Assembly (NCBI GenBank): GCA_027923505.1
Contig: BROI01000023.1
Coordinates: forward strand, 372,001-436,000
Length of the DNA: 64,000 bases
Origin: Mayamaea pseudoterrestris
Lineage: Eukaryota
Direction of reading: 5' to 3'
Below, piece by piece: positions 29,166-64,000 of the stretch. A program made the translations under genes and the position numbers. Every line of letters starts with the position of its first letter. Within the stretch, counting starts at the first letter, position 1. The notes under the pieces are model-generated. The model was not told the origin of the DNA and did no database searches. It saw nothing but the letters and a program-made list of their open reading frames with translations.

Positions 29166-30927
29166 ATATTCATTTGGCATGGTGAAACCCCTCCATGGCA
29201 TCCAAGTACCTCAGTGATGGCGAGAAGGAAAATCCTTCTGAGCGCCAGTTGTAGAGGCATCTGCCTAGAAGACGCCACTGGAGCACCAATGGAGCATCCA
29301 CTGAGCACCTGCATGGCCAAACCCTTGTCCCGTATGTTCATGTGGTGTGGTGAAACCCCTCCATGGCATCCAAGTAGCTCAGTGCAGGCAAGAAGAAAAA
29401 TCATTCTGAGCGCCACTTGTAGGGGCATCTGCCTAGAAGGCGCCACTGTTGCACCAATGGAGCATCCTATGAGCACCTGCATGGCCAAACCCTTGTCCCG
29501 TATGTTCATTTGCCATGGTGAAACCCCTCCATGGCATCCAAGTAGCTCAGTGACGACAAGAAGGAAAATTATTTAGAGCGCCACATAAAGGGTCATCGGC
29601 CTAGAAGGCGCCACTGGTGCACCGATGGAGCATCGTATGCACCTGCATGGCCAAACCCTTGTCCCGTATGTTCATTTGGTGTGGTGTAACCCTTCCATGG
29701 CATCCAAGTAGCTCAATGACAGCGAGAAAAAAATTCCTTCTGAGTGCCACTTGAAGGGCCATCTGCCTAGAAGGCGCCACTGGTTCACCAATGAAGCATC
29801 CAATGAGCACCTGCATGGCCAAACCCTTGTCCCGTATGTTCATTTGGCGTGGTGAAACCCCTCCATGGCATCCAAGTAGCTCAGTGATGGTGAGAAGGAA
29901 ATTTCTTCTGAGCTCCAGTTGTAGGGGCATCTGCCTAGAAGGCGCCACTGGTGCACCAATGGAGCATCCTATGAGCACCTGCATGGCCAAACCCTTGTCC
30001 CGTATGTTCATTTGGCGTGGTGAAACCCCTCAATGGCATCCAAGTATCTCAGTGACGGCAAGAAGGAAAATCCTTCTGAGCGCCACTTGAAGGGCCATTG
30101 GCCTAGAAAGCGCCACTGGTGCACCGATGGAGCATCCAATGAGCACCTGCATGGCCAAACGCTTGTCCCATATGTTCATTTGGCATGGTGTAACCCCTCC
30201 ATGGCATCCAAGTAGCTCAGTGACGGCGAGAAGGAAAATCCTTCTGAGCGCCAGTTGAAGGGCCATCTGCCTAGAAGGCGCCACTGGTGAACCAATGGAG
30301 CATCCAATGACCACCTGCATGGCCAAACCCTCGTCCCGTATGTTCATTTGGCGTGGTGAAACCCCTCCATGGCAACCAAGTAGCTCAGTGATGGCGAGAA
30401 GGAAAATTCTTCTGAGCTCCACTTGAAGGGGCATCTGCCTAGAAGGCGCCACTGGTGAACCAATGGAGCATCCAATGAGCACCTGCATGGCCAAACCCTT
30501 GTCCCGTATGTCCATTTTGGCGTGGTGAAACCCCTCCATGGCATACAAGTAGGTCAGTGCATGCAAGAAGGAAAATCATTCTGAGCGCCACTTGTAGGGG
30601 CATCTGCCTAGAAGGCGCCACTTGTAGGGGCATCTACCTAGAAGGCGCCACTGGTGCACCAACGGAGCATCCAATGAGCACCTGAATGGCCAAACCCTTG
30701 TCCCCTATGTTCATTTGGCGTGGTGAAACCCCTACATGGCATCCAAGTAGCTCAGTGACGGCGAGAAGGAAAATCCTTCTGAGCGCCACTTGAAGGGCCA
30801 TCTGCCTAGAAGGCGCCATTGGTGAACCAATGGAGCATCCAATGGGCACCTGCATGGCCAAACCCTTGTCCCGTATGTTCATTTGGCGTGGTGAAACCCC
30901 TCCATGGCATCCAAGTAGCTCAGTGAC
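29166..30927. repeat. Satellite A: 168-bp monomer, ~10.5 diverged copies
   Basis: The GGTG(A/T)AACCC anchor recurs at 29181, 29349, 29517, 29683, 29851, 30019, 30187, 30355, 30524, 30722 (after a 30-bp internal duplication) and 30890. Confidence 0.95.
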
Positions 30928-33900
30928 ACCAGCAACTTCTGCGGATCTGGAAGCAGGCAACATGCAGGAGGCAAATGCACAAAGTGAATGCACTATACAA
31001 TATCCATTTGTGACCTTGGATCATGCCCCAAGCCAGTTTACAAAGAGATGGTGGGGATCTGATGTTTGCCACTGCTAGGGTAGGCAGTCACATAGTACCT
31101 GCTAACTGAAGCTGCTGACCTGAAGGCAAAAGGCAAGCAGGAGGCTGATGCGCAAAACAAATTCACCAAGGAGGTATGTCTTGTGCCCTTGGATCATGCA
31201 CAGTGGCTGTACGCATAGAGTGTGTGGGAACTTCATGTTTGCCACTGCTAGGTTGGTGTTCAGCAGTTGGGTAGTACATAGCAGCAACTTCTGCGGATCT
31301 GGAAGCAGGCAACATGCAGGAGGCAAATGCACAAAGTGAATGCACTATACAATATCCATTTGTGACCTTGGATCATGCCCCAAGCCAGTTTACAAAGAGA
31401 TTGTGGGGATCTGATGTTTGCCACTGCTAGGGTAGGCAGTCACATAGTACCTGCTAACAGAGGTATGTTTTGTGCCATCGGATCATGCACAGTGGCTGTA
31501 CGCATAGAGTGTGTGGGCACTTCATGTTTGCCACTGCTAGGTTGGTGCTCGGCAGTTGGGTAGTACATACCAGCAACTTCTGCGGATCTGGAAGCAGGCA
31601 ACATGCAGGAGGCAAATGCACAAAGTGAATGCACTATACAATATCCATTTGTGACCTTGGATCATGCCCCAAGCCAGTTTACAAAGAGATTGTGGGGATC
31701 TGATGTTTGCCACTGCTAGGGTAGGCAGTCACATAGTACCTGCTAACTGAAGCTGCTGACCTGAAGGCAAAAGGCAAGCAGGAGGCTGATGCGCAAAACA
31801 AATTCACCAAGGAGGTATGTCTTGTGCCCTCGGATCATGCACAGTGGCTGTACGCATAGAGTGTGTGGGCACTTCATGTTTGCCACTGCTAGGTTGGTGC
31901 TTGTCAGTTGGGTAGTACATACCAGCAACTTCTGCGGATCTGGAAGCAGGCAACATGCAGGAGGCAAATGCACAAAGTGAATGCATTATACAATATCCAT
32001 TTGTGACCTTGGATCATGCCCCAAGCCAGTTTACAAAGAGATTGTGGGGATCTGATATTTGCCACTGCTAGGGTAGGCAGTCACATAGTACCTGCTAACT
32101 GAAGCTGCTGACCTGAAGGCAAAAGGCAAGCAGGAGGCTGATGCGCAAAACAAATTCACCAAGGAGGTATGTCTTGTGCCCTCGGATCATGCACAGTGGC
32201 TGTACGCATAGAGTGTGTGGGCACTTCATGTTTGCCACTGCTAGGTTGGTGTTCGGCAGTTGGGTAGTACATACCAGCAACTTCTGCGGATCTGGAAGCA
32301 GGCAACATGCAGGAGGCAAATGCACAAAGTGAATGCACTATACAATATCCATTTGTGACCTTGGATCATGCCCCCAGCCAGTATCTGGAAGCAGGCAACA
32401 TGCAGGAGGCAAATGCACAAAGTGAATGCATTATACAATATCCATTTGTGACCTTGGATCATGCCCCAAGCCAGTTTACAAAGAGATTGTGGGGATCTGA
32501 TATTTGCCACTGCTAGGGTAGGCAGTCACATAGTACCTGCTAACTGAAGCTGCTGACCTGAAGGCAAAAGGCAAGCAGGAGGCTGATGCGCAAAACAAAT
32601 TCACCAAGGAGGTATGTCTTGTGCCCTCGGATCATGCACAGTGGCTGTACGCATAGAGTGTGTGGGCACTTCATGTTTGCCACTGCTAGGTTGGTGTTCG
32701 GCAGTTGGGTAGTACATACCAGCAACTTCTGCGGATCTGGAAGCAGGCAACATGCAGGAGGCAAATGCACAAAGTGAATGCACTATACAATATCCATTTG
32801 TGACCTTGGATCATGCCCCCAGCCAGTAAGAGTGGGGGGACATGTTTGCCACGGTCTACATATAGAACTGAGCTGCATTGGAAGCAGGCAATGGGGGCAA
32901 TGCACATAGTGAGAATTTTGTGACCTTGGATCATGCCCCAAGCCAGTTTAAAAGAGATGTGGGGTGATGTTGCCATGCTAGGATAGACAGTCACATAGTA
33001 CCTGCTAACTGAAGCTGCTGACCTGAAGGCAAAAGGCAAGCAGGAGGCTGATGCGCAAAACAAATTCACCAAGGAGGTATGTCTTGTGCCCTCGGATCAT
33101 GCACAGTGGCTGTACGCATAGAGTGTGTGGGCACTTCATGTTTGCCACTGCTAGGTTGGTGTTCGGCAGTTGGGTAGTACATACCAGCAACTTCTGCGGA
33201 TCTGGAAGCAGGCAACATGCAGGAGGCAAATGCACAAAGTGAATGCACTATACAATATCCATTTGTGACCTTGGATCATGCCCCAAGCCAGTTTACAAAG
33301 AGATTGTGGGGATCTGATGTTTGCCACTGCTAGGGTAGGCAGTCACATAGTACCTGCTAACTGAAGCTGCTATCTGGAAGCAGGCAACCTGCAGGAGGCA
33401 AATGCACATGATAAATATCCATTTGTGCCTTGACCCCCAGCCATTTACAAAGAGTGGGGATCTGATGCCACTCTGGTAGACAGTCACATAGTACCTGCTA
33501 ACTGAAGCTGCTGACCTGAAGGCAAAAGGCAAGCAGGAGGCTGATGCGCAAAACAAATTCACCAAGGAATTATGTCTTTTGCCCTCGGATCATGCACAGT
33601 GGCTGTACGCATAGAGTGTGTGGGCACTTCATGTTTGCCACTGCTAGGTTGGTGTTTGGCAGTTGGGTAGTACATACCAGCAGCTTCTGCGGATCTGGAA
33701 GCAGGCAACATGCAGGAGGCAAATGCACAAAGTGAATGCACTATACAATATCCATTTGTGACCTTGGATCATGCCCCAAGCCAGTTTACAAAGAGATTGT
33801 GGGGATCTGATGTTTGCCACTGCTAGGGTAGACAGTCACATAGTACCTGCTAACTGAAGCTGCTGACCTGAAGGCAAAAGGCAAGCAGGAGGCTGATGCG

Positions 33901-36900
33901 CAAAACAAATTCACCAAGGAGGTATGTCTTGTGCCCTCGGATCATGCACAGTGGCTGTACGCATAGAGTGTGTGGGCACTTCATGTTTGCCACTGCTAGG
34001 TTGGTGTTCGGCAGTTGGGTAGTACATACCAGCAACTTCTGCGGATCTGGAAGCAGGCAACATGCAGGAGGCAAATGCACAAAGTGAATGCACTATACAA
34101 TATCCATTTGTGACCTTGGATCATGCCCCAAGCCAGTTTACAAAGAGATTGTGGGGATCTGATGTTTGCCACTGCTAGGGTAGGCAGTCACATAGTACCT
34201 GCTAACTGAAGCTGCTACCTGAAGGCAAAAGGCAAACAGGAGGCATGAGCCAAAACACCAAGGAGGTATGTCTTGTGCCCTCGGATCATGCACAGTGGCT
34301 GTACGCATAGAGTGTGTTGGCACTTCATGTTTGCCACTGCTAGGTTGGTGTTCGGCAGTTATGTAGTACATACCAGCAACTTCTGCGGATCTGGAAGCAG
34401 GCAACATGCAGGAGGCAAATGCACAAAGTGAATGCACTATACAATATCCATTTGTGACCTTGGATCATGCCCCAAGCCAGTTTACAAAGAGATTGTGGGG
34501 ATCTGATGTTTGCCACTGCTAGGGTAGGCAGTCACATAGTACCTGCTAACTGAAGCTGCTGACCTGAAGGCAAAAGGCAAGCAGGAGGCTGATGCGCAAA
34601 ACAAATTCACCAAGGAGGTATGTCTTGTGCCCTCGGATCATGCACAGTGGCTGTACGCATAGAGTGTGTGGGCACTTCATGTTTGCCACTGCTAGGTTGG
34701 TGTTCGGCAGTTGGGTAGTACATACCAGCAACTTCTGCGGATCTGGAAGCAGGCAACATCATGCAGGAGGCAAATGCACAAAGTGAATGCACTATACAAT
34801 ATCCATTTGTGACCTTGGATCATGCCCCAAGCCAGTTTACAAAGAGATTGTGGGGATCTGATGTTTGCCACTGCTAGGGTAGGCAGTCACATAGTACCTG
34901 CTAACTGAAGCTGCTGACCTGAAGGCAAAAGGCAAGCAGGAGGCTGATGCGCAAAACAAATTCACCAAGGAGGTATGTCTTGTGCCCTCGGATCATGCAC
35001 AGTGGCTGTACGCATAGAGTGTGTGGGCACTTCATGTTTGCCACTGCTAGGTTGGTGTTCGGCAGTTGGGTAGTACATACCAGCAACTTCTGCGGATCTG
35101 GAAGCAGGCAACATGCAGGAGGCAAATGCACAAAGTGAATGCACTATACAATATCCATTTGTGACCTTGGATCATGCCCCAAGCCAGTTTACAAAGAGAT
35201 TGTGGGGATCTGATGTTTGCCACTGCTAGGGTAGGCAGTCACATAGTACCTGCTAACTGAAGCTGCTGACCTGAAGGCAAAAGGCAAGCAGGAGGCTGAT
35301 GCGCAAAACAAATTCACCAAGGAGGTATGTCTTGTGCCCTCGGATCATGCACAGTGGCTGTACGCATAGAGTGTGTGGGCACTTCATGTTTGCCACTGCT
35401 AGGTTGGTGTTCGGCAGTTGGGTAGTACATACCAGCAACTTCTGCGGATCTGGAAGCAGGCAACATGCAGGAGGCAAATGCACAAAGTGAATGCACTATA
35501 CAATATCCATTTGTGACCTTGGATCATGCCCCAAGCCAGTTTACAAAGAGATTGTGGGGATCTGATGTTTGCCACTGCTAGGGTAGGCAGTCACATAGTA
35601 CCTGCTAACTGAAGCTGCTGACCTGAAGGCAAAAGGCAAGCAGGAGGCTGATGCGCAAAACAAATTCACCAAGGAGGTATGTCTTGTGCCCTCGGATCAT
35701 GCACAGTGGCTGTACGCATAGAGTGTGTGGGCACTTCATGTTTGCCACTGCTAGGTTGGTGTTCGGCAGTTGGGTAGTACATACCAGCAACTTCTGCGGA
35801 TCTGGAAGCAGGCAACATGCAGGAGGCAAATGCACAAAGTGAATGCACTATACAATATCCATTTGTGACCTTGGATCATGCCCCAAGCCAGTTTACAAAG
35901 AGATTGTGGGGATCTGATGTTTGCCACTGCTAGGGTAGGCAGTCACATAGTACCTGCTAACTGAAGCTGCTGACCTGAAGGCAAAAGGCAAGCAGGAGGC
36001 TGATGCGCAAAACAAATTCACCAAGGAGGTATGTCTTGTGCCCTCGGATCATGCACAGTGGCTGTACGCATAGAGTGTGTGGGCACTTCATGTTTGCCAC
36101 TGCTAGGTTGGTGTTCGGCAGTTGGGTAGTACATACCAGCAACTTCTGCGGATCTGGAAGCAGGCAACATGCAGGAGGCAAATGCACAAAGTGAATGCAC
36201 TATACAATATCCATTTGTGACCTTGGATCATGCCCCAAGCCAGTTTACAAAGAGATTGTGGGGATCTGATGTTTGCCACTGCTAGGGTAGGCAGTCACAT
36301 AGTACCTGCTAACTGAAGCTGCTGACCTGAAGGCAAAAGGCAAGCAGGAGGCTGATGCGCAAAACAAATTCACCAAGGAGGTATGTCTTGTGCCCTCGGA
36401 TCATGCACAGTGGCTGTACGCATAGAGTGTGTGGGCACTTCATGTTTGCCACTGCTAGGTTGGTGTTCGGCAGTTGGGTAGTACATACCAGCAACTTCTG
36501 CGGATCTGGAAGCAGGCAACATGCAGGAGGCAAATGCACAAAGTGAATGCACTATACAATATCCATTTGTGACCTTGGATCATGCCCCAAGCCAGTTTAC
36601 AAAGAGATTGTGGGGATCTGATGTTTGCCACTGCTAGGGTAGGCAGTCACATAGTACCTGCTAACTGAAGCTGCTGACCTGAAGGCAAAAGGCAAGCAGG
36701 AGGCTGATGCGCAAAACAAATTCACCAAGGAGGTATGTCTTGTGCCCTCGGATCATGCACAGTGGCTGTACGCATAGAGTGTGTGGGCACTTCATGTTTG
36801 CCACTGCTAGGTTGGTGTTCGGCAGTTGGGTAGTACATACCAGCAACTTCTGCGGATCTGGAAGCAGGCAACATGCAGGAGGCAAATGCACAAAGTGAAT

Positions 36901-39815
36901 GCACTATACAATATCCATTTGTGACCTTGGATCATGCCCCAAGCCAGTTTACAAAGAGATTGTGGGGGGGTATGATGGTTGCCACTGCTACGGTAGGCAG
37001 TCACATAGTACCTGCTAACTGAAGCTGCTGACCTGAAGGCAAAAGGCAAGCAGGAGGCTGATGCGCAAAACAAATTCACCAAGGAGGTATGTCTTGTGCC
37101 CTCGGATCATGCACAGTGGCTGTACGCATAGAGTGTGTGGGCACTTCATGTTTGCCACTGCTAGGTTGGTGTTCGGCAGTTGGGTAGTACATACCAGCAA
37201 CTTCTGCGGATCTGGAAGCAGGCAACATGCAGGAGGCAAATGCACAAAGTGAAGCAACAATATCCATTTGTGACCTTGGATCATGCCCAGCCAGTTTACA
37301 AAGAGATGTGGGATCTGATGTTTGCCACTGCTAGGGTAGGCAGCACAAGTACCGCTAGCGCTGACCGCAACAACGGCATCCGGATGTCTCCCTCGGAAGT
37401 GGCTTACGAGAGTGTGTGGGCACTTCATGTTTGCCACTGCTAGGGTTGGTTTCGGCAGTTGGGTAGTACATACCAGCAACTTCTGCGGATCTGGAAGCAG
37501 GCAACATGCAGGAGGCAAATGCACAAAGTGAATGCACTATACAATATCCATTTGTGACCTTGGATCATGCCCCAAGCCAGTTTACAAAGAGATTGTGGGG
37601 ATCTGATGTTTGCCACTGCTAGGGTAGGCAGTCACATAGTACCTGCTAACTGAAGCTGCTGACCTGAAGGCAAAAGGCAAGCAGGAGCGAGCATGCAAAA
37701 CAAATTCACCAAGGAGGTATGTCTTGTGCCCTCGGATCATGCACAGTGGCTGTACGCATAGAGTGTGTGGGCACTTCATGTTTGCCACTGCTAGGTTGGT
37801 GTTCGGCAGTTGGGTAGTACATACCAGCAACTTCTGCGGATCTGGAAGCAGGCAACATGCAGGAGGCAAATGCACAAAGTGAATGCACTATACAATATCC
37901 ATTTGTGACCTTGGATCATGCCCCAAGCCAGTTTACAAAGAGATTGTGGGGATCTGATGTTTGCCACTGCTAGGGTAGGCAGTCACATAGTACCTGCTAA
38001 CTGAAGCTGCTGACCTGAAGGCAAAAGGCAAGCAGGAGGCTGATGCGCAAAACAAATTCACCAAGGAGGTATGTCTTGTGCCCTCGGATCATGCACAGTG
38101 GCTGTACGCATAGAGTGTGTGGGCACTTCATGTTTGCCACTGCTAGGTTGGTGTTCGGCAGTTGGGTAGTACATACCAGCAACTTCTGCGGATCTGGAAG
38201 CAGGCAACATGCAGGAGGCAAATGCAATAGTGAATGCACTATACAATATCCAATTGTTACCTTGGATTATGCCCCAAGCCAGTTTACAAAGAGATTGTGG
38301 GGATCTGATGTTTGCCACTGCTAGGGTAGGCAGTCACATAGTACCTGCTAACTGAAGCTGCTGACCTGAAGGCAAAAGGCAAGCAGGAGGCTGATGCGCA
38401 AAACAAATTCACCAAGGAGGTATGTCTTGTGCCCTCGGATCATGCACAGTGGCTGTACGCATAGAGTGTGTGGGCACTTCATGTTTGCCACTGCTAGGTT
38501 GGTGTTCGGCAGTTGGGTAGTACATACCAGCAACTTCTGCGGATCTGGAAGCAGGCAACATGCAGGAGGCAAATGCACAAAGTGAATGCACTATACAATA
38601 TCCATTTGTGACCTTGGATCATGCCCCAAGCCAGTTTACAAAGAGATTGGGGGGATCTGATGTTTGCCACTGCTAGGGTAGGCAGTCACATAGTACCTGC
38701 TAACTGAAGCTGCTGACCTGAAGGCAAAAGTGACCTGAAGGCAAAAGGCAAGCAGGAGCGAGCGTGCAAAACAAATTCACCAAGGAGGTATGTCTTGTGC
38801 CCTCGGATCATGCACAGTGGCTGTACGCATAGAGTGTGTGGGCACTTCATGTTTGCCACTGCTAGGTTGGTGTTCGGCAGTTGGGTAGTACATACCAGCA
38901 ACTTCTGCGGATCTGGAAGCAGGCAACATGCAGGAGGCAAATGCACAAAGTGAATGCACTATACAATATCCATTTGTGACCTTGGATCATGCCCCAAGCC
39001 AGTTTACAAAGAGATTGTGGGGATCTGATGTTTGCCACTGCTAGGGTAGGCAGTCACATAGTACCTGCTAACTGAAGCTGCTGACCTGAAGGCAAAAGGC
39101 AAGCAGGAGGCTGATGCGCAAAACAAATTCACCAAGGAGGTATGTCTTGTGCCCTCGGATCATGCACAGTGGCTGTACGCATAGAGTGTGTGGGCACTTC
39201 ATGTTTGCCACTGCTAGGTTGGTGTTCGGCAGTTGGGTAGTACATACCAGCAACTTCTGCGGATCTGGAAGCAGGCAACATGCAGGAGGCAAATGCAATA
39301 GTGAATGCACTATACAATATCCAATTGTTACCTTGGATTATGCCCCAAGCCAGTTTACAAAGAGATTGTGGGGATCTGATGTTTGCCACTGCTAGGGTAG
39401 GCAGTCACATAGTACCTGCTAACTGAAGCTGCTGACCTGAAGGCAAAAGGCAAGCAGGAGGCTGATGCGCAAAACAAATTCACCAAGGAGGTATGTCTTG
39501 TGCCCTCGGATCATGCACAGTGGCTGTACGCATAGAGTGTGTGGGCACTTCATGTTTGCCACTGCTAGGTTGGTGTTCGGCAGTTGGGTAGTACATACCA
39601 GCAACTTCTGCGGATCTGGAAGCAGGCAACATGCAGGAGGCAAATGCACAAAGTGAATGCACTATACAATATCCATTTGTGACCTTGGATCATGCCCCAA
39701 GCCAGTTTACAAAGAGATTGGGGGGATCTGATGTTTGCCACTGCTAGGGTAGGCAGTCACATAGTACCTGCTAACTGAAGCTGCTGACCTGAAGGCAAAA
39801 GGCAAGCAGGAGGCA
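30928..39815. repeat. Satellite B: 352-bp unit (dimer of 173+179-bp halves), ~25 copies
   Basis: Identical short ORFs recur every 352 bp (e.g. 34947, 35299, 35651, 36003, 36355, 36707). ATGTTTGCCACTGCTAGG occurs twice per unit (31062, 31235, 31414). Confidence 0.96.
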
Positions 39816-39949
39816 AAACAAATCTGCCCTGATACAGGGTATGCCAATGCACAGTGGCTGTCGCATAGAGTGTGTGGGCACATGTACAACCAGGACTGCT
39901 GAGGTACCATGGGTACGGGCCCCATGCATGGTAACAACATCCAAGTGGG

Positions 39950-52250: not shown

Positions 52251-52624
52251 TATTGTCTACCGGTCGTGTCATTTTGTACTGGCCATCCCGTAGGCGGGAT
52301 GGCTCTCGTCCGTCTACAGAACTGGCGGTATAGTCTTCACTGCTGGTAGTGTTTGCACGGCTTCGCTCTGTAGAGTCCCAACATTCGCTGTGTACACCGG
52401 TTCCGGTATTCGATGTACCTGTGGTAGTCTTTCTACGGTTGTCAGTCGTGAATTCTTCGGGTACGGTGAAGTGTGTAGGGTTTGGGCCAGTGGCTGACTT
52501 TCTACTCTCGCCGTCGTAGGAGTGTGGTCGTGAACGGGATGTTCCGTGTCTTGATGCCGCTGGGACCGTGTCGATGTCCTTTTCAATGTTGCTTTGTTCG
52601 TCAGCCAAAACGGGGATCCCAGCA
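52251..52624 (-). repeat. 3' LTR of element 1 (end truncated or corrupted)
   Basis: Starts TGCTGGGATCCCC directly after the PPT and matches 58694-59050. The expected last ~80 bp are replaced by purine-rich low-complexity sequence at 52121-52250. Confidence 0.88.
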
Positions 52625-52634
52625 CCCTTCCCTT
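52625..52634 (-). promoter_or_regulatory. Polypurine tract of element 1
   Basis: AAGGGAAGGG on the minus strand immediately precedes the TG of the 3' LTR. Confidence 0.85.
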
Positions 52635-54262
52635 GGAGAGCGATGGTTTCAGGCATTGAGTCCATCTTGTAGTACTCATCCTCTCCAACTAGGATCCGTG
52701 CATGGCGATTGAAGGTAGAAAGGTCCAAGTTCTTGGTGAAGATGTCGGCCGTGTTCTTCTTGGTTTCAATGTACTTGACAAGGAGGATGCCGTGTTCTTT
52801 GAGCTCTCGAGCGAAGTTATGGCGTACGTCAACATGGCGTGTGCGCCCTCCTGTCTTCCAGCTGTTGATGATGTCGATTGCGCCGCTGTTGTCCATTTCC
52901 AGGACCATTGGTAGTTGGACTTTGAGGCCTATTGACTGAAGAATGGCATGTGTGTGGAGCATGTCTTGTATGACGTCGGTACCTGCGGACATTTCGGACT
53001 CAGTTACTGAAAGGGAGACGTGTTTCTGTAAGCGGCAAACTTCAGCGACGGGAACGCCTTCAAGGAAGGTGATGCCACCGGAATGACTCTTGTGCTTGTC
53101 GGGATCCTTGGCGTAATCTGAATCGCTTCTGGCGCTGATGATAAAGACGTGGTTTGGGCCGGTATACTCGCGGTTTGGGAGGAACAGTCTGCCTCTCTTT
53201 GGTGTTGCACACATGTAGCGGATGGCTCGGTACATGGCTTTCTCGTGGGCTTCTTCTCCCGTCTTCATGGCTCGGCATAAGTCATTTATGGCGTAGAGTG
53301 TCTCTGGTCGAGACCATCGGGCGAGGTAAAGTAGTTTGCCTAGGCCTTGTCGAAGGGTCGTCTGCTTGTTGTTGCTTAGAGCGGAAGGATCGCCTTCTTT
53401 GACGCATGGTAGCACCGTTCCGGGTTGAGCAGGGACGCATGCTTCTTGGCGCCTCGGCGGAGGGATTGTAAACTCGTCTTGTAAGCTTTGCAGGAGGACT
53501 GGTTGCGTCCATCGCATGTAGTTTTCGCCTCGTTCAATCTTGCAACCGATGTACTCGTTCATTGGTCCACCGTCTTCGCCGTCAAAGTGCTGTAGAAGTT
53601 GTTTCTTGGTGTCTTCGATCATGTCCGGAGGGCCGCTTAACAGGAGATCGTCGATGTGCGAGACGATGTGCATGTGGCGGTCGCCATCTTGTTTGTAAAA
53701 CAGGCAAGGGTCGGCAACACTCCGTTCAAATCCTATCTGTCGAAGTGCTTTAACCAGTTGGTCCCAGAACGCTCGCGCAGCTTGTTTAGTTCCGTATAGC
53801 GTGCGCTTGAGTAGCCAAACGTGATTGGGTGGATAGTCGTCTTGGAAACCTTCAGGTATGTGCATGTAACACTCGTGGCCTTCGTCAAACGTGCCGTAGA
53901 GGAATGCTCCGCTTATATCGAAGATGTGTGGCTCGTATCCCATCATGATGGCAAGAGTTGTGACAATCTTGATGGACGTTGGCGATGCTACTGGAGATGA
54001 GATCTTGTTGCTGTCATAATGGATACCGTCCTCTTGCTCGTAGCCTCTTGCTGTGATTCGTGCCTTGTACGTGCCGTTTGACTTCTTCTTGAGCACCCAC
54101 TTGCTTGTCATGCACTTTGTTCGAGGTGGTATCATGCTGCGTGAAACAACTTGGAATGTGCCGTGCTTGATGAGGTTGTCCTTCTCCTTGTGTATTGCCT
54201 TGATCCATTCAGGACGCTCTGGACTGCCCATGGCTTGCTTGAACTTGATCGTGCTCAGGGGA
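52625..54262 (-). pseudogene. pol: Copia reverse transcriptase-RNase H fragment (5'-truncated pol)
   Basis: RT motifs KWVLKKK..YKARITARGYEQ, FDISGAFLYG, LKRTLYGTKQAARAFW, SHIDDLL. RNase H motifs SDSDYAKD, SVTESE, EMDNSGA, RTRHVDVRHNF, NTADIFTKNL. The frame is open but is fused to satellite upstream. Confidence 0.93.
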
Positions 54263-54940
54263 GGCTGAACAGGTACGGCCTCCACTGTGGGTATGGCACC
54301 ACAAGTTGCAGATCTTTCCCTGTCAAACGGCCCATGCCCTGGCCACCCAAATACCCAATGAGTCAAAACATGTCAGGGGTGTGACAGGATAGTCTCAAAT
54401 GGTAAGGAGCTGGAGGCTGACACCATGGAATTACGGCCTCCACTGTGGGTATGGCCAACACCACATGTTACAGATTCTTCCCTGTCAAACGCCCAATGCC
54501 CTGGCCACCCAAATGCCAATCCAGGCAAAACATGTCGGTGCCATTGACAGGTGCATAGTCTCTGTAGTTGCAAAGGACTGCCTGGAGGCTGACACCATGG
54601 ATACGAGCCTCCACTGTGGAGTATGCCAACACCACAAGTTGCAGATTCTTCCTGTCAAGCATGTTGCCTGGCCACCCAAATACCAATGAGTCAGGCAAAC
54701 ATGTTCTAAAAGTATGCCATTGACTGGTGCAGAGGTCTAAATATGGTGCCAAATAGGACTGCCTAGAGGCTGACACGGCCTCCACGTTGGGTATGGCCAA
54801 CACCACAAGATTGCCGATTCTGACCTGTCAAACGCCCCATGCCCTGTACCCAAATACCCGATGAGTCAGGCAAAACATATCCAGGGTATGCCATTGACAG
54901 GTGCAGAGTCTCAAATGGTGCAAAAAGGATTGCCTGGAGA
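54260..54940 (+). repeat. Degenerate Satellite C block (~4 monomers) inside element 1
   Basis: SatC motifs with many small indels lie between the RT fragment and the gag tail. Confidence 0.9.
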
Positions 54941-56480
54941 GGCTGCTCGATTGATGAATCATCTTCCGATGAATAGTCTTTAATCTGATGTGGCTGTAGA
55001 CCGCGCCAATTGGTTTGTGGATATAAAGGCAACGGTGTTGGAGCTGCAGGAGTGCGAGTAGGGAGTGCTGGATAAGTTTCATCAACTAAGTTGGCATGTA
55101 TGAAGGCAAATTTGCTCCTTGAGTTTGTAGAAGGATAACGGTGGCTTGAAGAGGAATGTTGCAAAGAGGAACGATGCGATCGCTGAGTCAACTGAAGGGC
55201 TTCGTGTACTGCTGCAAGTCCTTGTTCGAGTAATGGCGCTTGACGAGGCACTTGTTTGCGCATGATGGTTCGCGGGTGAGGCTCTTGATGATGGTTTTGA
55301 TGCTCAAGTTGACGCGGTTGCTCTTGATGATCTCGGCGACGATAATCATTGTCTCTTGGTTGGTCTCTTGTGCGCTCATTGTTGCGATTCTGGCGATAAC
55401 GACGGTCTTCTTGCTGATCATCATGAGGAGGACGATGATCTTGCTGTTGATTTGAATTGCGAGGACGCTCTCTTGGTTGTTCTAAACCACGTTCTTGTTG
55501 CTCTCATGCTTCTTGATCTTCCATCAGACAGCTTCGTTTGACGAGTTCCATGCGGCATTTTTGACTCGTTCAAAGCAGTCGGCGCTTCGATGATATGGTT
55601 GATGGCAAAGGTAGCATTTGAATGATGGTGGATTTTGCGTGTTGTTAAAGTTGGTTTGAGGGCGTTCATTGCGAGTTGGCGACGCTTGATGCTGACGAGT
55701 GTTTTGTTGGCGTGAAGTTTCTTGTTGCGGCAGTTCTGGTTGCGCTGCATATAGAACAATTTTGTTGACTCCTTGTATTAAAGCTTCTTCGTCTTCTGCT
55801 GCGTAAATTGTTTGGTAGATAGTCGATACGACGCCTTCCATTTCGGTTTTGGTCAATGCGCGTTGCTTGGTCTTTTGCTCTTGTGCTAAAGTGAGGCAGT
55901 ATTGAGGTGGCAGCTTGTTCATGAGCGTAGCCATCAGGTCGTCTGCAAGAAGTGTTTGGTTGAACTTGATGGCTTGCGATTGCATGAGGTCGATGAGGTC
56001 TTGAGGGTTTGCTTTTGGTCGTTCGAGCTTGAGGTTTTGGATGCTTCGTCGATAAAGTGTTGGCGCCATGAACTTGTCTGGAGAGAACTTGATTTCCAAT
56101 GCATTGATAACTTTCCAAGCTTCATCTCCTGGATACTCTGTTGATTCTGCTCCAACAAGATGGTCGTTCAACTCGGGGAATGGCGACAGTGCGATGGAGA
56201 GCATTTGCATGAGCGTTTCATTCTGCTTGCGTTCCGCTTGTTTGTTTCGAATGATTTGGATTTCGTCTGCTGTTGCGTTAGCTGCGGGATCAGTAATGAC
56301 TTCATTTTGAGTAGCTGGTAAGTGCTCGGGTCGACTGCCTCTTATAGGACGACAACAGCCTGCAATTCTTGCATGATTCTTGAACTGGTTGAACCATGAT
56401 GGAAAGGCTTCAATGGTGTTGGTTATCTTTGGCATTTTGTAGAGCGCATTCATAGTGATGTCTTCTTGTTGGTCGGTCAT
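54940..56480 (-). pseudogene. gag: Copia gag with premature stop and frameshift
   Basis: 318-aa ORF (FPSWFNQFKNHA...AWKVINALEIKFSP...LMNKLPPQY) with zinc knuckle CYLCHQPYHRSADC and TGA at 55524-55526. An R/Q/D-rich reading then continues in another frame to the satellite junction. Confidence 0.85.
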
Positions 56481-56488
56481 GGTTGCGA

Positions 56489-58386
56489 TTAGAATGAGTA
56501 GTAAAAGTTTTGGCTATTGGTTGGACGTTGATAGCTAACGTTGTTGTCGGAGAATAAAGATTGACGGTTTGGGGTAGCTAAACATTGCTGACGTGGCCAA
56601 TTGAGTTGCTGATGTGATGGAGTTTGAAAACGTGAACGAGTGTGGAACTGCTGAGCATGTTGATCGCGACGATGGACACATTGTTGATTTGTCACTTGTT
56701 GATTTCGTTGAGCTTGTAAGTGCTGCTGTTGTTGTTGTTGATTAAGAAGATGATTTAAACGAGTTACTTGAGCTTGAAGACTGTTTAAATCGCGTGTATG
56801 ATGAGTTGTAGTGTTGCGAGTGTCGTTGATGCGAGGCTGGACTTGAAGAGTTGGATTGGAGGTTCGGTTTTGCTGTCGGGTTGGCGTGACGATTCGATTT
56901 GCTTGTTGCTGTCTTAAACGCTGCTGGTAAGGACGACTGCTGTTGTCAGTTTGGCGATGGTCCTTTGACTAACAGTGATTGATTGCGTTGAAGATTGATC
57001 GACTTGTTGCGGTGATGCGCCCTCTTTGACTTGCTGTGCCGTCCGTATTGTTGTTGAACGCAGGCCTCGCGATGCGAGGTGCTTCTTGGTAAGTGCTTGA
57101 AACGTTCTGAGAGTGAAGAGTTTGTTGCAATGGTCTCGTGTCTTGGCGAAGCGCTTGACTAACTGGCGCTTGATTTGCTTCTTGTTGGCGAGTCGGATGG
57201 TTCGATCGGTGGGCTTGCGACGTGCTTGTTGGAGATGTTTCTAATTGCTCGTTGGTTGGTGATGAGTTGTTGCTTGGGGAGGGTACGTGTGCTTGCGGGT
57301 TGGCAATGCACACTGAACAAGCGCACGTCGTCTCTGTGTTTATATCTGGTACTTCACAAAGTCTTTGCAAGTCTTGACGTCTGTTTTTCTTCACTTTGCG
57401 GAAGCAGAAACTAGGGTAAGAGTTACTGGATGCGATAGGTTGCTGTTCATTGTTTGTTGCGCAAAGTGTCTTCTAGTAGAAGAATCTCCTTCTCTTCGGG
57501 CGTGAAAGGATCGTTCGGTTGGCAAAGATCAAGGCTCTTGTAAAAGTCTGCTCGCTTTTCATCAAGGAAGATTAATGACTTTGGAGAAAAGATGAAGGCT
57601 TTGAGAAAGGGTATGCTGCTGTCGATGTAACTTGTTTCGACACCCGATTGTGCGGTTCACTCGGCAACTTTTGCTAATTCTTCTTCTTTGAATTCTTCCG
57701 CAATGTGATTGTAAAACACTTCGTTGTTGGCAAGGTCTTTAAACTGATTGAAGCGCTGCTCACAAGCTTGTTCCGGGTTGATTGGCTTTGATGAAGGCGG
57801 CGGTAGAATGCCTCGAAAGATCCAGGTGAAGCGCTTGTCTTCTTCGTCCCAAGTCCAAGGGGTTGGAGGAGAGACGCGTACATACACCAGCCGTATCGAA
57901 GGCGGTGGTTGTAGACTGCTCTTTGATGGTTCCAGTTAAATGCCAGTCTTTGGGGTTGTTCGGTGAAAGTTGGTGTGCGCTACTCTGTTGGAATGCGGCT
58001 TTTGTTGCTGTGCAAATTTGATCGGCGGCGGTAAGACGGATTACTGGATGGCCTTCTGGAGTGACCAATTGGGAACTTGAAGGATTGAACTCGTGTAAAG
58101 TAATGTTGGTGAAGAGGACGACGACTTGTAGAAGGCGTCGTGAAGAATTAAAGACTTGGCGGCTTGTGTTGAAGCGGCGAAGGAAACTGTAAAGAAGGCG
58201 CGTGACTTGTGGAGTGAGAAGCGACTTGAAAAGAGTGCTCGGCAGACTAGGTAAAGTAGTTCTGCTCAACTGATGGAGACTTGAAATCTGCTCGACGACG
58301 TTGGCCTTGATCAAACGCTTGATCCGACTCGAGGTAAACTGAAAGATAAAGGCAAAAGGGTCGCTTGTAGGCTTGCTCTTGCTCAC
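56489..58386 (-). pseudogene. Degraded additional ORF upstream of gag (~630 codons)
   Basis: Fragments 57760-58386, 57657-57887, 56969-57394 and 56489-56695 chain through about two frameshifts and isolated TGA/TAG stops. The chain ends 8 nt before the gag ATG. Confidence 0.6.
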
Positions 58387-58611
58387 TCAATACTCCGCTT
58401 GTTGCTGCAGAGCTTTGGAAATTCGAGGTTGACAGAAAGGGCTTGAAGAAATCCGCGTCCGGTTTTGTTCAATGCTTTGGAAACTTGGTAAAAAGATCTT
58501 GGTTCAATCGGCAAGTAATTACTTTGCTTGAGATCCAAGATGAAGGTCCGTACGGAAGTAGGGAGAAAAGACGGTTTAAACGCTAAAAGACTGGGGAAAC
58601 TTTGAATCTAT

Positions 58612-59050
58612 TGTTAGTAGATCCGCTAGAATGAGACAAAAGTGAAGCGGTCGATTTCACATCCAAGAGTGGCTTCTCATTCATACGTATGTATATTGTC
58701 TACCGGTCGTGTCATTTTGTACTGGCCATCCCGTAGGCGGGATGGCTCTCGTCCGTGTACAGAACTGGCAGTATAGTTTTCACTGCTGGTAGTGTTTGCA
58801 CGGCTTCTCTCTGTAGAGGCCGAACATTCGCTGTGTACGCCGGTTCCAGTATTCGATGTACCTGTGGTAGTCTTTCTACGGTTGTCAGTCGCGAATTCGC
58901 GAATTCTTCGGGTACGGTGAAGTGTGTAGGGTTTGGGCCAGTGGCTGACTTTCTACTCTCGCCGTCGTAGGAGTGTGGTCGTGAACAGGATGTTCCGTGT
59001 CTTTGGACCGTTGTGACCGTGTCGATGTCCTTTTCAAGGGGATCCCAGCA
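58612..59050 (-). repeat. 5' LTR of element 1 (~439 bp)
   Basis: TG start at 59050 abuts satellite. The end ...CTACTAACA at 58612 is inferred because the partner LTR end is corrupted. Confidence 0.8.
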
Positions 59051-60659
59051 TGTTGGCCATACCCACAGTGGAGGCCGTACCCATGGTGTCAGCCTCCAGG
59101 CAGTCCTTTTTGCACTTTTTGAGACTCTGCACCTGTCAATGGCATACCCTGGACATGTTTTGCCTGACTCATTGGGTATTTGGGTGGCCAGGGCATGGGG
59201 CGTTTGACAGGGATGAATCTGCAACTTGTGGTGTTGGCCATACCCACAGTGGAGGCCATACCCATGGTGTCAGCCTCCAGGCAGTCCTTTTTGCACCATT
59301 TGAGACTCTGCACCTGTCAATGGCATACCCTGGACATGTTTTGCCTGACTCATTGGGTATTTGGGTGGCCAGGGCATGGGGCGTTTGACAGGGAAGAATC
59401 TGCAACTTGTGGTGTTGGCCATACCCACAGTGGAGGCCGTACCCATGGTGTCAGCCTCCAGGCAGTCCTTTTTGCACCATTTGAGACTATGCACCTGTCA
59501 ATGGCATACCCTGGACATGTTTTGCCTGACTCATTGGGTATTTGGGTGGCCAGGGCATGGGGCATTTGACAGGGATGAATCTGCAACTTGTGGTGTTGGC
59601 CATACCCACAGTGGAGGCCGTACCCATGGTGTCAGCCTCCAGGCAGTCCGTTTTGCACCATTTGAGACTATGCACCTGTCAATGGCATACCCTGGACATG
59701 TTTTGCATGACTCATTGGGTATTTGGGTGGCCAGGGCATGGGGCGTTTGACAGTGAAGAATCTGCAACTTGTGGTGTTGGCCATACCCACCGTTGAGGCC
59801 GTACCCATGGTGTCAGCCTCCAGGCAGTCCTTTTTGCACCATTTCAGACTCTGCACCTGTCAATGGCATACCCTGGACATGTTTTGCCTGACTCATTGGG
59901 TATTTGGGTGGCCAGGGCATGGGGCGTTTGACAGGGAAGAATCTGCAACTTGTGGTGTTGGCCATACCCACAGTGGAGACCGTACCCATGGTGTCAGCCT
60001 CCAGGCAGTCCTTTTTGCACCATTTGAGACTATGCACCTGTCAATGGCACACCCTGGACATGTTTTGCCTGACTCATTGGGTATTTGGGTGGCCAGGGCA
60101 TGGGGCGTTTGACAGGGAAGAATCTGCAACTTGTGGTGTTGGCCATACCCACAGTGGAGGCCGTACCCATGGTGTAAGCCTCCAGGCAGTCCTTTTTGCA
60201 CCATTTGAGACTCTGCACCTGTCAATGGCATACCCTGGACATGTTTTGCCTGACTCATTGGGTATTTGGGTGGCCAGGGCATGGGGCGTTTGACAGGGAA
60301 GAATCTGCAACTTGTGGTGTTGGCCATACCCACAGTGGAGGCCGTACCCATGGTGTCAGCCTCCAGGCAGTCCTTTTTGCACCATTTGAGACTATGCACC
60401 TGTCAATGGCATACCCTGGACATGTTTTGCCTGACTCATTGGGTATTTGGGTGGCCAGGGCATGGGAATCTGCAACTTGTGGTGTTGGCCATACCCACAG
60501 TAGAGGCTGTACCCATGGTGTCAGCCTCCAGGCAGTCCTTTTTGCACCATTTGAGACTCTGCACCTGTCATTGGCATACCCTGGACATGTTTTGCCTGAC
60601 TCATTGGGTATTTGGGTGGCCAGGGCATGGGGTGTTTGACAGGGAAGAATCTGCAACTT
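59051..60659 (-). repeat. Satellite C, inverted orientation, ~9 monomers
   Basis: Reverse complement of the SatC monomer with 181-bp period; one copy has a short deletion near 60465. Confidence 0.97.
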
Positions 60660-63600
60660 TGCAGGATGCGAACGAAAACAGCGAAAATCGGGCAAGTCAC
60701 ACCGAATGTCCGATAGGGTGACACAGCGGCACTCGCGGCTCACCACAGCCTCACGATCGCGTGATGCGTGGCAGCGACGGCTTCGAAGCGATTCAACGAG
60801 CATATTGCTGAAACTAGTGCGATATAGAGTAGAAACAAGCAGACTTACTAAGCTTGAAGAGTTAAGAAAGCGATTTATTCGTCTCTCGTATTGTAGCAAC
60901 TGCAAGCTTGGATTGGCCATCCAAGGACAGCTACAAGCGAAAGGTGCAACGATTTGATTTACAAGTTACAAGATTAACACTGTCTTGAGACTCATTGCCT
61001 CGGCATAGAGACTTTATCGACGAAGAGTACTATTGATTTACGAAGTAACGTGGACGCACGTTGGTTCTTGGCCCGGAAAGTTCCGCAGGTGATAGCAAGA
61101 ACATTGTCACGACGACAACGATGGCGGAAACTCGCGCGCAGAAAGACGCGGCGTTTGCGCATGTTTACGAAGAGAACGTAGGCGTTTTCCAAGATCCTCA
61201 GTTCAAGGAGTTATTCGACGAACTCGGAGTAGAATCGCTTACGCAATTGATCGAGATGGAGTACGACGATTTCGCGACGAAGTGGAACGTCACGACGACG
61301 ACAACGACGACGACTGACGATGGCGACAATGTCACGCAGGAAACGAGCGAACACTCGCTAACGAAGATGAAACAACGCACGATCACGAACGCGATCGAAT
61401 GGTATTTGGCGCAAGAGTCGCCGGACATCAAGACATGGTCGCAACTGACCACCGAAACGCTGGCGACGTTCGTCACAGCACGAGCGAAGGAACGAGTCCA
61501 AGCGCGCAACATTGCGAGCGTGGGCAGCGGAAGCGGAGCGAAACCTCCAGCGAAGGAAAGCGAAACGGAATCCAAGAAGGACGAATCCAAGGACTCCACG
61601 CTAACGAACGAAGGCGACGAGTCGAAGCCCGACTCGGCCGACAAGGTGCCACCGACGAGCGTGGACGTGGACACGAAGCAGTCACCGACATCCGTACTGG
61701 ACCTCGGCGACGACGAAGACGACGAGAAGTATTCAGACCAATTTACGAAGTCTATCAAGTTCTCGGCGAAGGATTGTAAAGAAATGAAGCTGGATTCCTC
61801 GTGGAAACAGTGGATTTCCGAGTTGAAAGTCATCGCTACATTGCACGACTTCCACGAAGTCTTTGACGACGATTATGACCCGAAGGAAAAGGGACCGAAG
61901 GAACAGAAGGCGTATGCAAAGAAGAATGTGTTTGTATACAGAATCTTTCTCACGCACTGTCGAACTCCGTCTGCATCACTCGCAGTACAGCAGTTCAAGA
62001 AGACGATGGACGGACGCGAAGTCTACCAACGATTGCGAACGCGATACGAAGAAGGCGCTACTGCTCACATCGAGAAGGAACGCGCGCGAACGGAACTGCA
62101 GGGAATGCGGCTGACCGAGAAGTGGTCACGGCCGACGATCGAATTTCTCGCACTGTTCTACAAGAAAGTCATCTGGCTGCTCGAAATGGACGCAGAAGCT
62201 CTGACAGGTTTACAACGATACGACATGCTACGCGACGCTTTCTCCGAGCACACTGGATTCAGCGCCTCGCTAGCAGGTTTTGACGGAATGATTGCCATCA
62301 AGAAACACATGGGGCAACACGACTCGGAAGACAATTTCGCGCAGTTGTACGCGCACTTAGAAGAGTGCTGCATCAAGTATGACAAGAAACACCCATCGAC
62401 GACGAAGACTAAGCGCACAATCAATCAAGCGCAGTCTAGTGGAACGAAAGGAGGCGGCGGCGGCAATGGCGGCGCGACTCCAAGCGGCTTATCGGCGGAA
62501 CGATTTGCAGCGATCATGAAGAAACCTCACGCGAGCGTGAAGGATGAAGTCTGGTTGGAGATGAAGTTTGATCAGCGAAAGCAGTTGAAGGACAAGCGTG
62601 CGACGGCGCCCAAGACACCCGAAAACGGATGGCGACCGCGCAACCAACGAGGCACGGCTACGACGCAGACGCAAGTCAACGCGGCGCATCAAGAGCGTCA
62701 CGCGACGGAATCTGTAGCGAACGATCACGCAAGCGTTCCTGGCACGATTAATATTCAGCCCGGCAATAGTGGAATGTCAGTCCAAACGGCTGCACGATCG
62801 GTTCTGCAAGCGAACAATGCGAGTACTACAACTCAGCAAGTGACAGGATCGTTGACGACTGATAACACCGGACGAGGTACATTCAGCTTCAACATGCATC
62901 GTCGTATGCGCGTCAATCGCGCACACTACGAGCGGATCAACGAAGGCGCGCTCATCGACAGCGGCGCGAACGGAGGCTTATGCGGAGGAGACATGCTCGT
63001 CGTTTCGGAAACGAACGCCGAGGTGGATGTGACTGGTATTGACGATCATATTGTCCCAGCTCTCAAGATTGGCACTGCAGCTGGACTGGCAAAGACCCTT
63101 AGTGGCGAAACCATTCTGCTTCTGTGTCACCAGTATGCTTTAAAGCGAGACGGACCGACGATTCATTGCCCGAATCAATTGCGCGCAATGGGACATCGCG
63201 TCGACGATATTCCGACCATGTTTGGCGGAACGCAACGAATTACGACGAACATTGGAGGCTACGTTTTGCCATTGGCGATTCGCGATGGCCTGGTGTACTT
63301 GGACGTGACGAAACCCACGTTCGATGATTTGGATAAGTATCCGACTGTCATCATGACGTCGGACGTGCCGTGGGACCCGACTGTTTACGATGTCGAGCAC
63401 GCGCACGACGATTTCGACGAACGAGATCACGATTATGGATCTTTCGACGAACGATTCGATGATGACGGTATCACGCACCGCAATCGTCACACGCCGACAC
63501 GCACTGGCGACGAACTTGACGTACTGATCAATCGGTGCGTGCGACACGCTCAGTTTTCACGCGTTAATTTGCGGAAGCTAAGAAGCAAGGAACCGGACTA

Positions 63601-64000
63601 TAATGCTCTTCGGCCGTACCTCGGATGGGTCCCGACTGAGCGAGTTCAACAGACTTTACGTCACACGGAAGCATGGTATCATCTCAGCGAACACCCGCGA
63701 TTACCATTTCGACACCTCACGAAATCACGATTTCCGGCCGCGAACGTTCAGCGGTTGCGCGAACTATTCGCCACGGACACGATACACTCTGACACGCCAG
63801 CTTTGGATGATGGAATTCTAGGGCATGGGGGAGCTACTAAGATGCAGCTCTTTGTTGGACGAGAAAGTTTTTACACGCGCGGCTACCCGATGAAGTCGGA
63901 GAGCGAAATGTCAAACGCGTTAGAGGATTTTATCCGCGAAGTGGGCGCTCCTAACGGACTGCTCAGCGACAATGCCAAGTCGGAGACTGGCAAGGCTGTG
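60660..64000 (+). mobile_element. Ty1/copia (CoDi-type) LTR retrotransposon 2, 5' part, apparently intact
   Basis: Satellite stops at ...GCAACTT|TGCAGGATG. Putative LTR 60660-60979 (TG...GATTAACA; end inferred, partner LTR outside the window), followed by a long gag-pol ORF. Confidence 0.9.
61121..64000 (+). CDS. CoDi-type gag-protease-integrase polyprotein (partial, 960 codons, runs off window)
   Basis: Absent from the ORF track because it has no stop. ATG 61121 MAETRAQ...; gag FTKSIK...WKQW...VFDDDYDP...KNVFVY; protease ALIDSGANGGLCGGD (~62948); GGTQRI...LPLAIRDGL...TSDVPWDP; integrase core FATDT...LEDFIREVGAPNGLLSDNAKSE; all in one frame. Confidence 0.93.
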   Translation, partial: MAETRAQKDAAFAHVYEENVGVFQDPQFKELFDELGVESLTQLIEMEYDDFATKWNVTTTTTTTTDDGDNVTQETSEHSLTKMKQRTITNAIEWYLAQESPDIKTWSQLTTETLATFVTARAKERVQARNIASVGSGSGAKPPAKESETESKKDESKDSTLTNEGDESKPDSADKVPPTSVDVDTKQSPTSVLDLGDDEDDEKYSDQFTKSIKFSAKDCKEMKLDSSWKQWISELKVIATLHDFHEVFDDDYDPKEKGPKEQKAYAKKNVFVYRIFLTHCRTPSASLAVQQFKKTMDGREVYQRLRTRYEEGATAHIEKERARTELQGMRLTEKWSRPTIEFLALFYKKVIWLLEMDAEALTGLQRYDMLRDAFSEHTGFSASLAGFDGMIAIKKHMGQHDSEDNFAQLYAHLEECCIKYDKKHPSTTKTKRTINQAQSSGTKGGGGGNGGATPSGLSAERFAAIMKKPHASVKDEVWLEMKFDQRKQLKDKRATAPKTPENGWRPRNQRGTATTQTQVNAAHQERHATESVANDHASVPGTINIQPGNSGMSVQTAARSVLQANNASTTTQQVTGSLTTDNTGRGTFSFNMHRRMRVNRAHYERINEGALIDSGANGGLCGGDMLVVSETNAEVDVTGIDDHIVPALKIGTAAGLAKTLSGETILLLCHQYALKRDGPTIHCPNQLRAMGHRVDDIPTMFGGTQRITTNIGGYVLPLAIRDGLVYLDVTKPTFDDLDKYPTVIMTSDVPWDPTVYDVEHAHDDFDERDHDYGSFDERFDDDGITHRNRHTPTRTGDELDVLINRCVRHAQFSRVNLRKLRSKEPDYNALRPYLGWVPTERVQQTLRHTEAWYHLSEHPRLPFRHLTKSRFPAANVQRLRELFATDTIHSDTPALDDGILGHGGATKMQLFVGRESFYTRGYPMKSESEMSNALEDFIREVGAPNGLLSDNAKSETGKAV

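Follow-up and report, generated by a model that had tools for sequence, protein, structure and literature searches.

We report a block of satellite DNA and retroelements in the diatom Mayamaea pseudoterrestris, found in a stretch of 64,000 nucleotides that we call the window (contig BROI01000023.1 of assembly GCA_027923505.1, positions 372,001 to 436,000). There, a gene-dense part switches abruptly to at least 35 kb of satellites and retroelements that run to the end of the window, with neither a gene nor a chromosome end among them. Three satellites, named A, B and C here, follow each other from 29165 to 52126 and, with a short transition between B and C, span 22,962 bp, matching the original prediction of about 23 kb of three abutting satellites with monomers of 168, 173/179 and 181 bp; Ty1/Copia elements come after them, so that the layered architecture of satellites and long terminal repeat (LTR) elements announced in that prediction is indeed present. 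In our reading, the block, one edge of which lies in the window, is constitutive satellite heterochromatin of a nuclear chromosome of the diatom. From its sequence features, it is also a candidate (peri)centromere, the likeliest of the explanations considered, which we put forward tentatively, as quite possible but somewhat short of probable.

Three satellite families and their footprint

Arrays were called with Tandem Repeats Finder, and their units were mapped by BLAST and nhmmer. Array A (29165-30926, plus strand) consists of about 10.5 copies of a 168-bp monomer with a GC content of 0.53, and its nine full units have a mean pairwise identity of 0.899. Array B (30928-39823, plus strand) is built on a 352-bp dimer whose halves (173 and 179 bp) are 63% alike; mean pairwise identity reaches 0.978 over 18 full dimers, and rearranged units, which make up about one third of the array, include variants with periods of 289, 445 and 93 bp found mostly within its first 2.7 kb. 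A degenerate transition of 123 bp (39824-39946), in which 36 bp are B-like and a stretch of 90 bp is 68% like C, leads to the main array of C (39947-52126, plus strand), in which about 67 copies of a 181-bp monomer with a GC content of 0.54 gave 70 nhmmer matches, 61 of them full length. The mean identity of this array is about 0.97, without any higher-order period (0.969-0.972 at lags 1-8); its six units adjoining B are more diverged (0.887-0.943), and it terminates at unit position 62. Nine more C units lie in the reverse orientation at 59051-60659 (minus strand), beginning at unit position 69 and finishing at 72; they are 95% alike and 94-96% like the main array. The flip in orientation noted in the original prediction is thus seen in these units, and its description of the most diverged array as the outermost one agrees with the identities measured in A, B and C.

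The arrays are locally homogenised, with identical neighbouring B dimers, a C array that is 97% uniform and diverged C units at its edge. Homogeneity is at its extreme at about 34.7-36.7 kb, where nine successive 200-bp steps of B show 100% identity at lag 352; this run of dimers results either from a very recent amplification or from over-polishing or collapse in the assembly.

All three families form long head-to-tail arrays of a non-coding monomer, as is typical of satellite DNA. They are mutually unrelated, with no detectable similarity and not one shared word of at least 10 bases, and consequently no CENP-B-box-like element is seen. Neither an Rfam nor a tRNA match was obtained in the satellites, which sets them apart from tandem arrays of RNA genes (5S, small nuclear RNA or tRNA), and no open reading frame (ORF) spans array A, even though 168 is divisible by 3. 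The minus strand of array C has few stop codons between 40150 and 52003, resulting in a series of ORFs of 189-249 residues; as each 181-bp unit brings a change of frame, these ORFs are not coding and are a trap for gene callers. We also considered an origin of the satellites from the two retroelements of the window, which is not supported, no relatedness having been found between A, B or C and either element.

In order to evaluate how abundant these satellites are in the genome, we used public sequencing runs (eight were found, from two studies) and mapped the short-read contigs of four of them, called X1, X2, X3 and X5, on positions 24001-32600, which hold the last gene, array A and the start of array B, array C lying beyond. 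The gene, which codes for a DDT/WSD-domain protein, has a flat single-copy word depth of 89 in X1 and 31.9 in X5. The six bins of A average about 127,770 in X1 and 9,003 in X5, i.e., about 1436 and 282 times the gene, and the six bins of B about 158,866 and 12,998, i.e., about 1785 and 407 times; overall, A and B exceed the single-copy gene beside them about 280-1800 times in summed word depth, in runs from both studies. The copies present in the window could yield at most about 10 times the gene depth for A (10.5 units) and 25 times for B (about 25 dimers). Depth being far above these values, A and B occur at many other places or in far larger arrays. As many as 5,913 distinct contigs in X1 and 1,375 in X5 fall on the 3.4 kb of satellite, with more than 100 loose ends reported, and neither of the two loose-end sequences that were checked, both attached to B, occurs in the window. 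A and B are therefore high-copy satellites genome-wide, with hundreds to thousands of copy-equivalents, a genomic abundance typical of satellite DNA, and the restriction of the arrays to a single locus, which was to count against the original prediction, does not apply to these two families. One contig in X1 and one in X5 cross the edge between gene and satellite and end 27-33 bases into array A, so that this junction is confirmed twice, in two studies.

The two other mapped runs are labelled as other organisms of the same study. A-like and B-like pieces were present in them at 29167-32600, at depths of at most 148 (X2) and 260 (X3), together with almost none of the gene adjoining A, and one X2 contig of 382 bases carries variants absent from X1 and X5; these pieces are explained either by relatives that have the satellite in common or by carry-over from one library to another. 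When metagenome contigs were scanned for exact matches to a 44-mer of C and to a 32-mer of B, neither gave a locus.

The satellites also differ from the rest of the window in their dinucleotides. Observed/expected CpG is 0.39 in A, 0.23 in B, 0.16 in the main C array, 0.13 in the inverted one and 0.24 in a C relic described below, for 1.13 in the genes and 0.96-1.57 in the retroelement parts, and the satellites have an observed/expected ratio of 1.5-1.78 for TpG and CpA taken together. Among about 1,160 segments of equal size drawn from the gene part, only three are as CpG-poor as A and none as CpG-poor as B or C. CG methylation at diatom repeats via DNMT5a has been described (PMC9998398). A loss of CpG accompanied by an excess of TpG and CpA, in the satellites only, would be explained by long CpG methylation, and we infer from these ratios that the satellites have been subject to long-term methylation and deamination. 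As the embedded retroelements are not CpG-depleted, they would be younger than the arrays, which fits with the near-identical copy of one of them on another contig.

Two Copia elements inside array C

Two retroelements lie in C, in opposite orientations pointing apart, with clean LTR-to-satellite junctions and TG starts. The original prediction had LTR elements embedded in the innermost array: embedding is what we observe, and "innermost" is assumed, a single side of the block being in view.

Element 1 is on the minus strand. Its 3′ LTR (52250-52624) and its 5′ LTR (58692-59050) both start with TGCTGGGATCCCC, the former just after a polypurine-like tract, and the pair was detected as a 345-bp direct repeat (52250-52586 and 58693-59037) with 93% identity. 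The 5′ LTR directly abuts the inverted C array at 59050/59051. On the other side, reading of the sequence reveals a purine-rich (GA) filler of 123 bp (52127-52249) between array C and the 3′ LTR; as nothing comparable is found at the 5′ LTR, that junction is not an original insertion junction. Reverse transcriptase (RT) as well as RNase H of the Ty1/Copia type are encoded at 52573-54258 (minus strand), in an open frame that continues into the LTR, and RVT_2 (PF07727) was found in the minus-strand ORF 52192-54372 with an E-value of 4.4e-43.

A protein search over 1.84 billion representatives retrieved full-length relatives of element 1, of 1456-1519 residues and 45-46% identity. When eight of them were compared to the window by local tblastn, all eight matched, in the RT part, from 54258 downwards only, and a single one (P0192, residues 39-334, in its gag part) matched a gag-like ORF at 55539-56435 (E 2e-15). 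This ORF belongs to the interior of the element (54946-58691, minus strand), where no Pfam family was found beyond weak, chance-level matches and where about 2.2 kb without assigned feature lie between this ORF and the 5′ LTR. Since the relatives stop matching at 54258, element 1 keeps an LTR, gag, RT-RNase H and the other LTR, and has lost its protease-integrase part. In place of the latter, we found about 0.6 kb without assigned feature and a 686-bp relic of C (54260-54945, plus strand), which abuts the truncated pol exactly. The relic contains about four units of about 171 bp that are 82-86% like C and 72-76% mutually alike; caught between pieces of retroelement, these C units have thus diverged to an identity of about 84%. 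Element 1 thus has several Copia features (RVT_2 followed by RNase H, an LTR pair and a polypurine tract) and lacks the complete gag-protease-integrase-RT order, its protease-integrase being absent. Its flanks being in opposite orientation, no target-site duplication can be read. With a missing protease-integrase and a piece of C inside, it does not qualify as a clean insertion.

Element 2 (60660-64000, plus strand) starts with an LTR/leader beginning with TGCAGG at about 60660, continues with a gag-protease-integrase ORF from 61049 and runs off the window. Its ORF has no Pfam match of its own, and it is identical at 630 of 632 residues to P0123, a polyprotein of 1602 residues in which rve (591-651, E 4.7e-4, below the Pfam cut-off) precedes RVT_2 (1096-1307, E 3.9e-25). 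The Copia order, with the integrase before the RT, is accordingly that of P0123, the window holding the gag-protease-integrase part only, in which a D-S-G motif of the protease was identified by eye. RVT_2 was found in 17 of 39 homologues of this element, and those with an organism name are Nitzschia proteins and one protein labelled as coming from a bacterial metagenome-assembled genome. P0123 is recorded on a contig of 1,237,716 bp, different from that of the single-copy genes of the window (525,119 bp), and the existence of this near-identical copy means that the family is multi-copy and probably recently active.

The possibility that elements 1 and 2 were the two halves of one inverted element was rejected, as each family has its own RT. 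Indeed, they are just 21% identical over RT-RNase H and therefore belong to different Ty1/Copia families; likewise, the gag-protease-integrase part of element 2 and the interior of element 1 are not similar. A chromodomain at the C-terminus of the integrase, as expected for a CoDi-like targeting to heterochromatin, was searched for in P0123 and in three relatives of element 1, and no chromodomain family was found at E ≤ 0.1.

The positions at which C is interrupted are close to each other within the 181-bp unit: the breaks at retroelement ends or at the break of the array (52126, 59050 and 60660) fall at unit positions 62, 69 and 72. The chance that three random breakpoints fall within 11 bp is about 0.01, a rough post-hoc estimate. 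This clustering could be due to integration at a favoured site or to nucleosomes that are phased on C; the spacing suggests that such phased nucleosomes may steer integration.

The flanking genes

The gene-dense part covers positions 1-28882 and contains closely packed eukaryotic genes, with a GC content that does not set it apart from the rest, all 2-kb steps across the 64 kb being between 0.46 and 0.54. Among their products are a carnitine O-acyltransferase, spread over three pieces of ORF, a protein of the Aha1-TPR type, another that is LtrA-like and the DDT/WSD-domain protein used above as a single-copy reference. The latter is encoded by the last gene before the satellites, an ORF of 1586 aa (24122-28882, plus strand) with matches to PF02791 (E 2.2e-10) and PF15613 (E 4.9e-12); this last long ORF stops at 28882 and array A begins at 29165, so that the genes do stop abruptly, as had been described.

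The taxon was only probable when the sequence was first read, and a diatom is what the proteins encoded next to the block point to, all their organism-named relatives being diatom proteins. For the carnitine acyltransferase, the best matches reach 83%, the best organism-named one is from Thalassiosira pseudonana (55%), and one further cluster contains a protein of Mediolabrus comicus. For the Aha1-TPR protein, the organism-named rows among the 120 matches listed are six out of six from Bacillariophyta, with 37-44% identity. None of the species named in these matches is a close one.

Some other features of the gene part are worth reporting. A minisatellite of 42 bp (seven copies, 83% matches) is located at 15420-15721, just upstream of the start of the Aha1-TPR gene at 15887. 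Two adjacent minus-strand ORFs at 17332-19430 match the two halves of LtrA, for low temperature requirement A, a bacterial family (E 2.4e-9 and 1.2e-5), and may together form a single gene interrupted by an intron or a frameshift. No Pfam family was found in three long ORFs (270-1982, 570 residues; 4542-8357, 1271 residues; 12226-13983, 585 residues), the second of which is an exact match to an annotated protein in a public record.

A candidate (peri)centromere and its alternatives

Nucleosome-length monomers, a homogenised core and nested retroelements, the combination that characterises regional satellite centromeres, are all found in the block. In plants and animals, the centromeric satellites have monomers of 178 bp in Arabidopsis, 171 bp in human (alpha-satellite) and 155 bp in rice (CentO). 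The block resembles such centromeres in its head-to-tail monomers of 168-181 bp, its homogenised cores with diverged edges, its layered families, its nested LTR retrotransposons, its strand switches and what looks like a heavy footprint of cytosine methylation. It differs from them by arrays of kilobases rather than megabases, by a balanced GC content instead of an AT-rich one, by the lack of a higher-order repeat in C, by the fact that no shared protein-box motif was found, as well as by its host, which belongs to a group otherwise known for tiny non-repetitive centromeres. A general description of the regional satellite centromeres of plants and animals is given by Diner et al. (bioRxiv 10.1101/096016).

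Among diatoms, the centromeres of Phaeodactylum tricornutum, verified by chromatin immunoprecipitation (Diner et al., bioRxiv 10.1101/096016), and those of Fistulifera solaris, predicted and tested on episomes (Maeda et al., bioRxiv 10.1101/2021.11.10.468027), are described as short, low in GC and non-repetitive, and the same type is predicted for the centric T. pseudonana in this literature; the original prediction was therefore right to call the characterised Phaeodactylum centromeres short, low-GC and non-satellite. According to the same sources, they measure 0.5-3 kb, with a GC content below 33% over 500 bp in Phaeodactylum or of 36-42% in Fistulifera, and are without repeats. One such region per chromosome would be expected in these species, as it would be for the block, which differs from them in that it consists entirely of repeats and that the lowest GC content over 500 bp in the whole window is 41.8%. 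Diner et al. (bioRxiv 10.1101/096016) look for at least 500 bp at less than about 33% GC, seen as clustered 100-bp windows at 32% GC or less; with 50-bp steps, not a single 100-bp segment of the 64 kb has such a low GC content. The window, thus, displays neither the low GC nor the absence of repeats of the Phaeodactylum type.

Other stramenopiles offer a different comparison. The CENP-A regions of Phytophthora sojae are filled by Copia-like elements in so-called CoLT clusters (PMC7082073), and the centromeres of Ectocarpus are marked by LTR elements named ECR (PMC11541908). The block shares with both its LTR retrotransposons and its gene-free nature beside active genes, and with Phytophthora the Copia type of these elements. 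In the two published cases, tandem repeats are reported as minor (3.5% in Ectocarpus) and one element family is common to all centromeres, whereas satellites dominate in the block and its two elements come from different families. Abundant satellite families also exist in Phytophthora parasitica (PpSat1 and PpSat2, PMC7290008), in another organism and with unrelated sequences; the report leaves open their link to centromeres or telomeres.

One has to keep in mind that abundant arrays specific to one chromosomal region can also be subtelomeric, such as the satellites of Ectocarpus (about 98 bp) and Chlamydomonas, whose monomers contain TTAGGG and abut the telomere (PMC11541908). No telomere repeat adjoins the arrays within the 64-kb window: TTAGGG/CCCTAA does not occur there even once, and no monomer contains a telomere-like word. 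Of the 2,080 canonical hexamers, only 4, including this one, are absent from the window, for an expectation of about 15.6 from dinucleotide shuffles versus about 3.3 from a higher-order Markov model; given the latter value, the signal of avoidance is weak.

We picture the arrays as homogenised by gene conversion and unequal exchange and probably CpG-methylated over a long time, with retroelements arriving later, within C. If the block does mark a (peri)centromere, CENH3 nucleosomes would sit on one array, C being the best candidate, or immediately past the window, and the diatom's centromere would be regional and based on satellites instead of short and low in GC. The layered families with nested LTR elements and a strand switch, the abundance of A and B, the heterochromatin footprint, the absence of a telomere motif in the 64 kb and the richness in LTR elements of other stramenopile centromeres all argue for the (peri)centromere. 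The more specific versions of this proposal are more doubtful: we hold CENH3 on the arrays themselves to be possible, if on the unlikely side, and the same goes for a karyotype with regional GC-balanced, CpG-methylated satellite centromeres, nested Copia elements and about one A/B/C block per chromosome.

Several observations weigh against a centromeric role. Centromeres are short, low in GC and non-repetitive in Phaeodactylum and Fistulifera, and predicted to be so in T. pseudonana; to this are added the balanced GC content of the arrays (0.49-0.54) with no shared motif, and the fact that only one flank of the block is in view. Behind the CpG argument, there are effectively three or four monomers that are independent, and summed contig word depth is not a copy number, so that only its order of magnitude was taken. 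Compared to shuffled sequences, dyad symmetry or non-B DNA is not in excess in B (z 0.14) or in C (z 0.27) and is only marginal in A (z −2.13, 6 out of 200 shuffles folding equally well). Lastly, the high copy number of A and B fits subtelomeric or knob-like satellites equally well.

This leads to the first alternative, a heterochromatin that is not centromeric, i.e., a subtelomere-proximal or interstitial knob-like island of satellites in which weak recombination and selection let repeats and retroelements accumulate, the true centromere being a short low-GC stretch elsewhere. We take it as a serious contender, only slightly less likely than the (peri)centromere, as short, low-GC, repeat-free centromeres are reported or predicted in a pennate, an allopolyploid pennate and a centric diatom, while high copy number, CpG depletion and retroelement insertions are general features of heterochromatin; moreover, Ectocarpus has an abundant subtelomeric satellite (PMC11541908), and the block may sit near a contig end, since repeats of this kind are a frequent place for assemblies to break. 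Such an island is, however, at odds with at least 35 kb devoid of genes and of a chromosome end, with monomers and a window free of the telomere words of the Ectocarpus satellite, and with three layered families, the most homogeneous of which carries retroelements, a situation more typical of centromere regions; there is no low-GC stretch in the window either, though the window is just 64 kb.

A pericentromere only, in which the arrays would flank the kinetochore and CENH3 would lie on a retroelement-rich part past the window or on a small unique core, overlaps with the (peri)centromere proposed above and is, in our opinion, clearly less probable than the island. Retroelements do become denser toward the end of the window, the family of element 2 is young, judging from its copy on another contig, and the other stramenopiles that have been studied have, as a rule, centromeres of the transposon type, according to PMC7082073 and PMC11541908; still, just two elements are seen, of two families, and neither they nor their relatives were found to have a chromodomain or another targeting domain. 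Least probable of all, and hardly to be retained, is an artefact of assembly, in which the satellites would be real and their abutting order, their sizes or the inversion would result from collapsed or mis-joined long reads. The perfectly identical B dimers, the coincidence of the orientation flip with retroelement ends and the short-read contigs that stop at the array edge, leaving the internal order without independent confirmation, are what such an artefact could produce; on the contrary, the junction between gene and A is confirmed in two studies, and a chimeric join would not yield array edges with graded divergence, degenerate transition units and clean LTR-to-satellite junctions with TG starts.

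Regions combining satellites and retroelements are well known in eukaryotes, and the one described here would be new for diatoms. Our full-text searches, which leave out most subscription journals and are not proof of absence, retrieved no paper on satellite arrays at diatom centromeres or on satellite heterochromatin in diatoms. Diatom centromeres are currently described as short and low in GC, and so permissive that foreign AT-rich DNA can serve, a picture that underlies diatom episome vectors as well as ideas on gene acquisition. Should the block not be a centromere, it would still document an abundant satellite heterochromatin in a diatom, with a methylation footprint. Should it be one, the short low-GC picture would not be general for diatoms, and low-GC episome designs may not transfer to all of them; the type of centromere would have turned over within the group, from or to the tiny, sequence-permissive Phaeodactylum type, and diatoms would offer a system for studying such a turnover inside one phylum.

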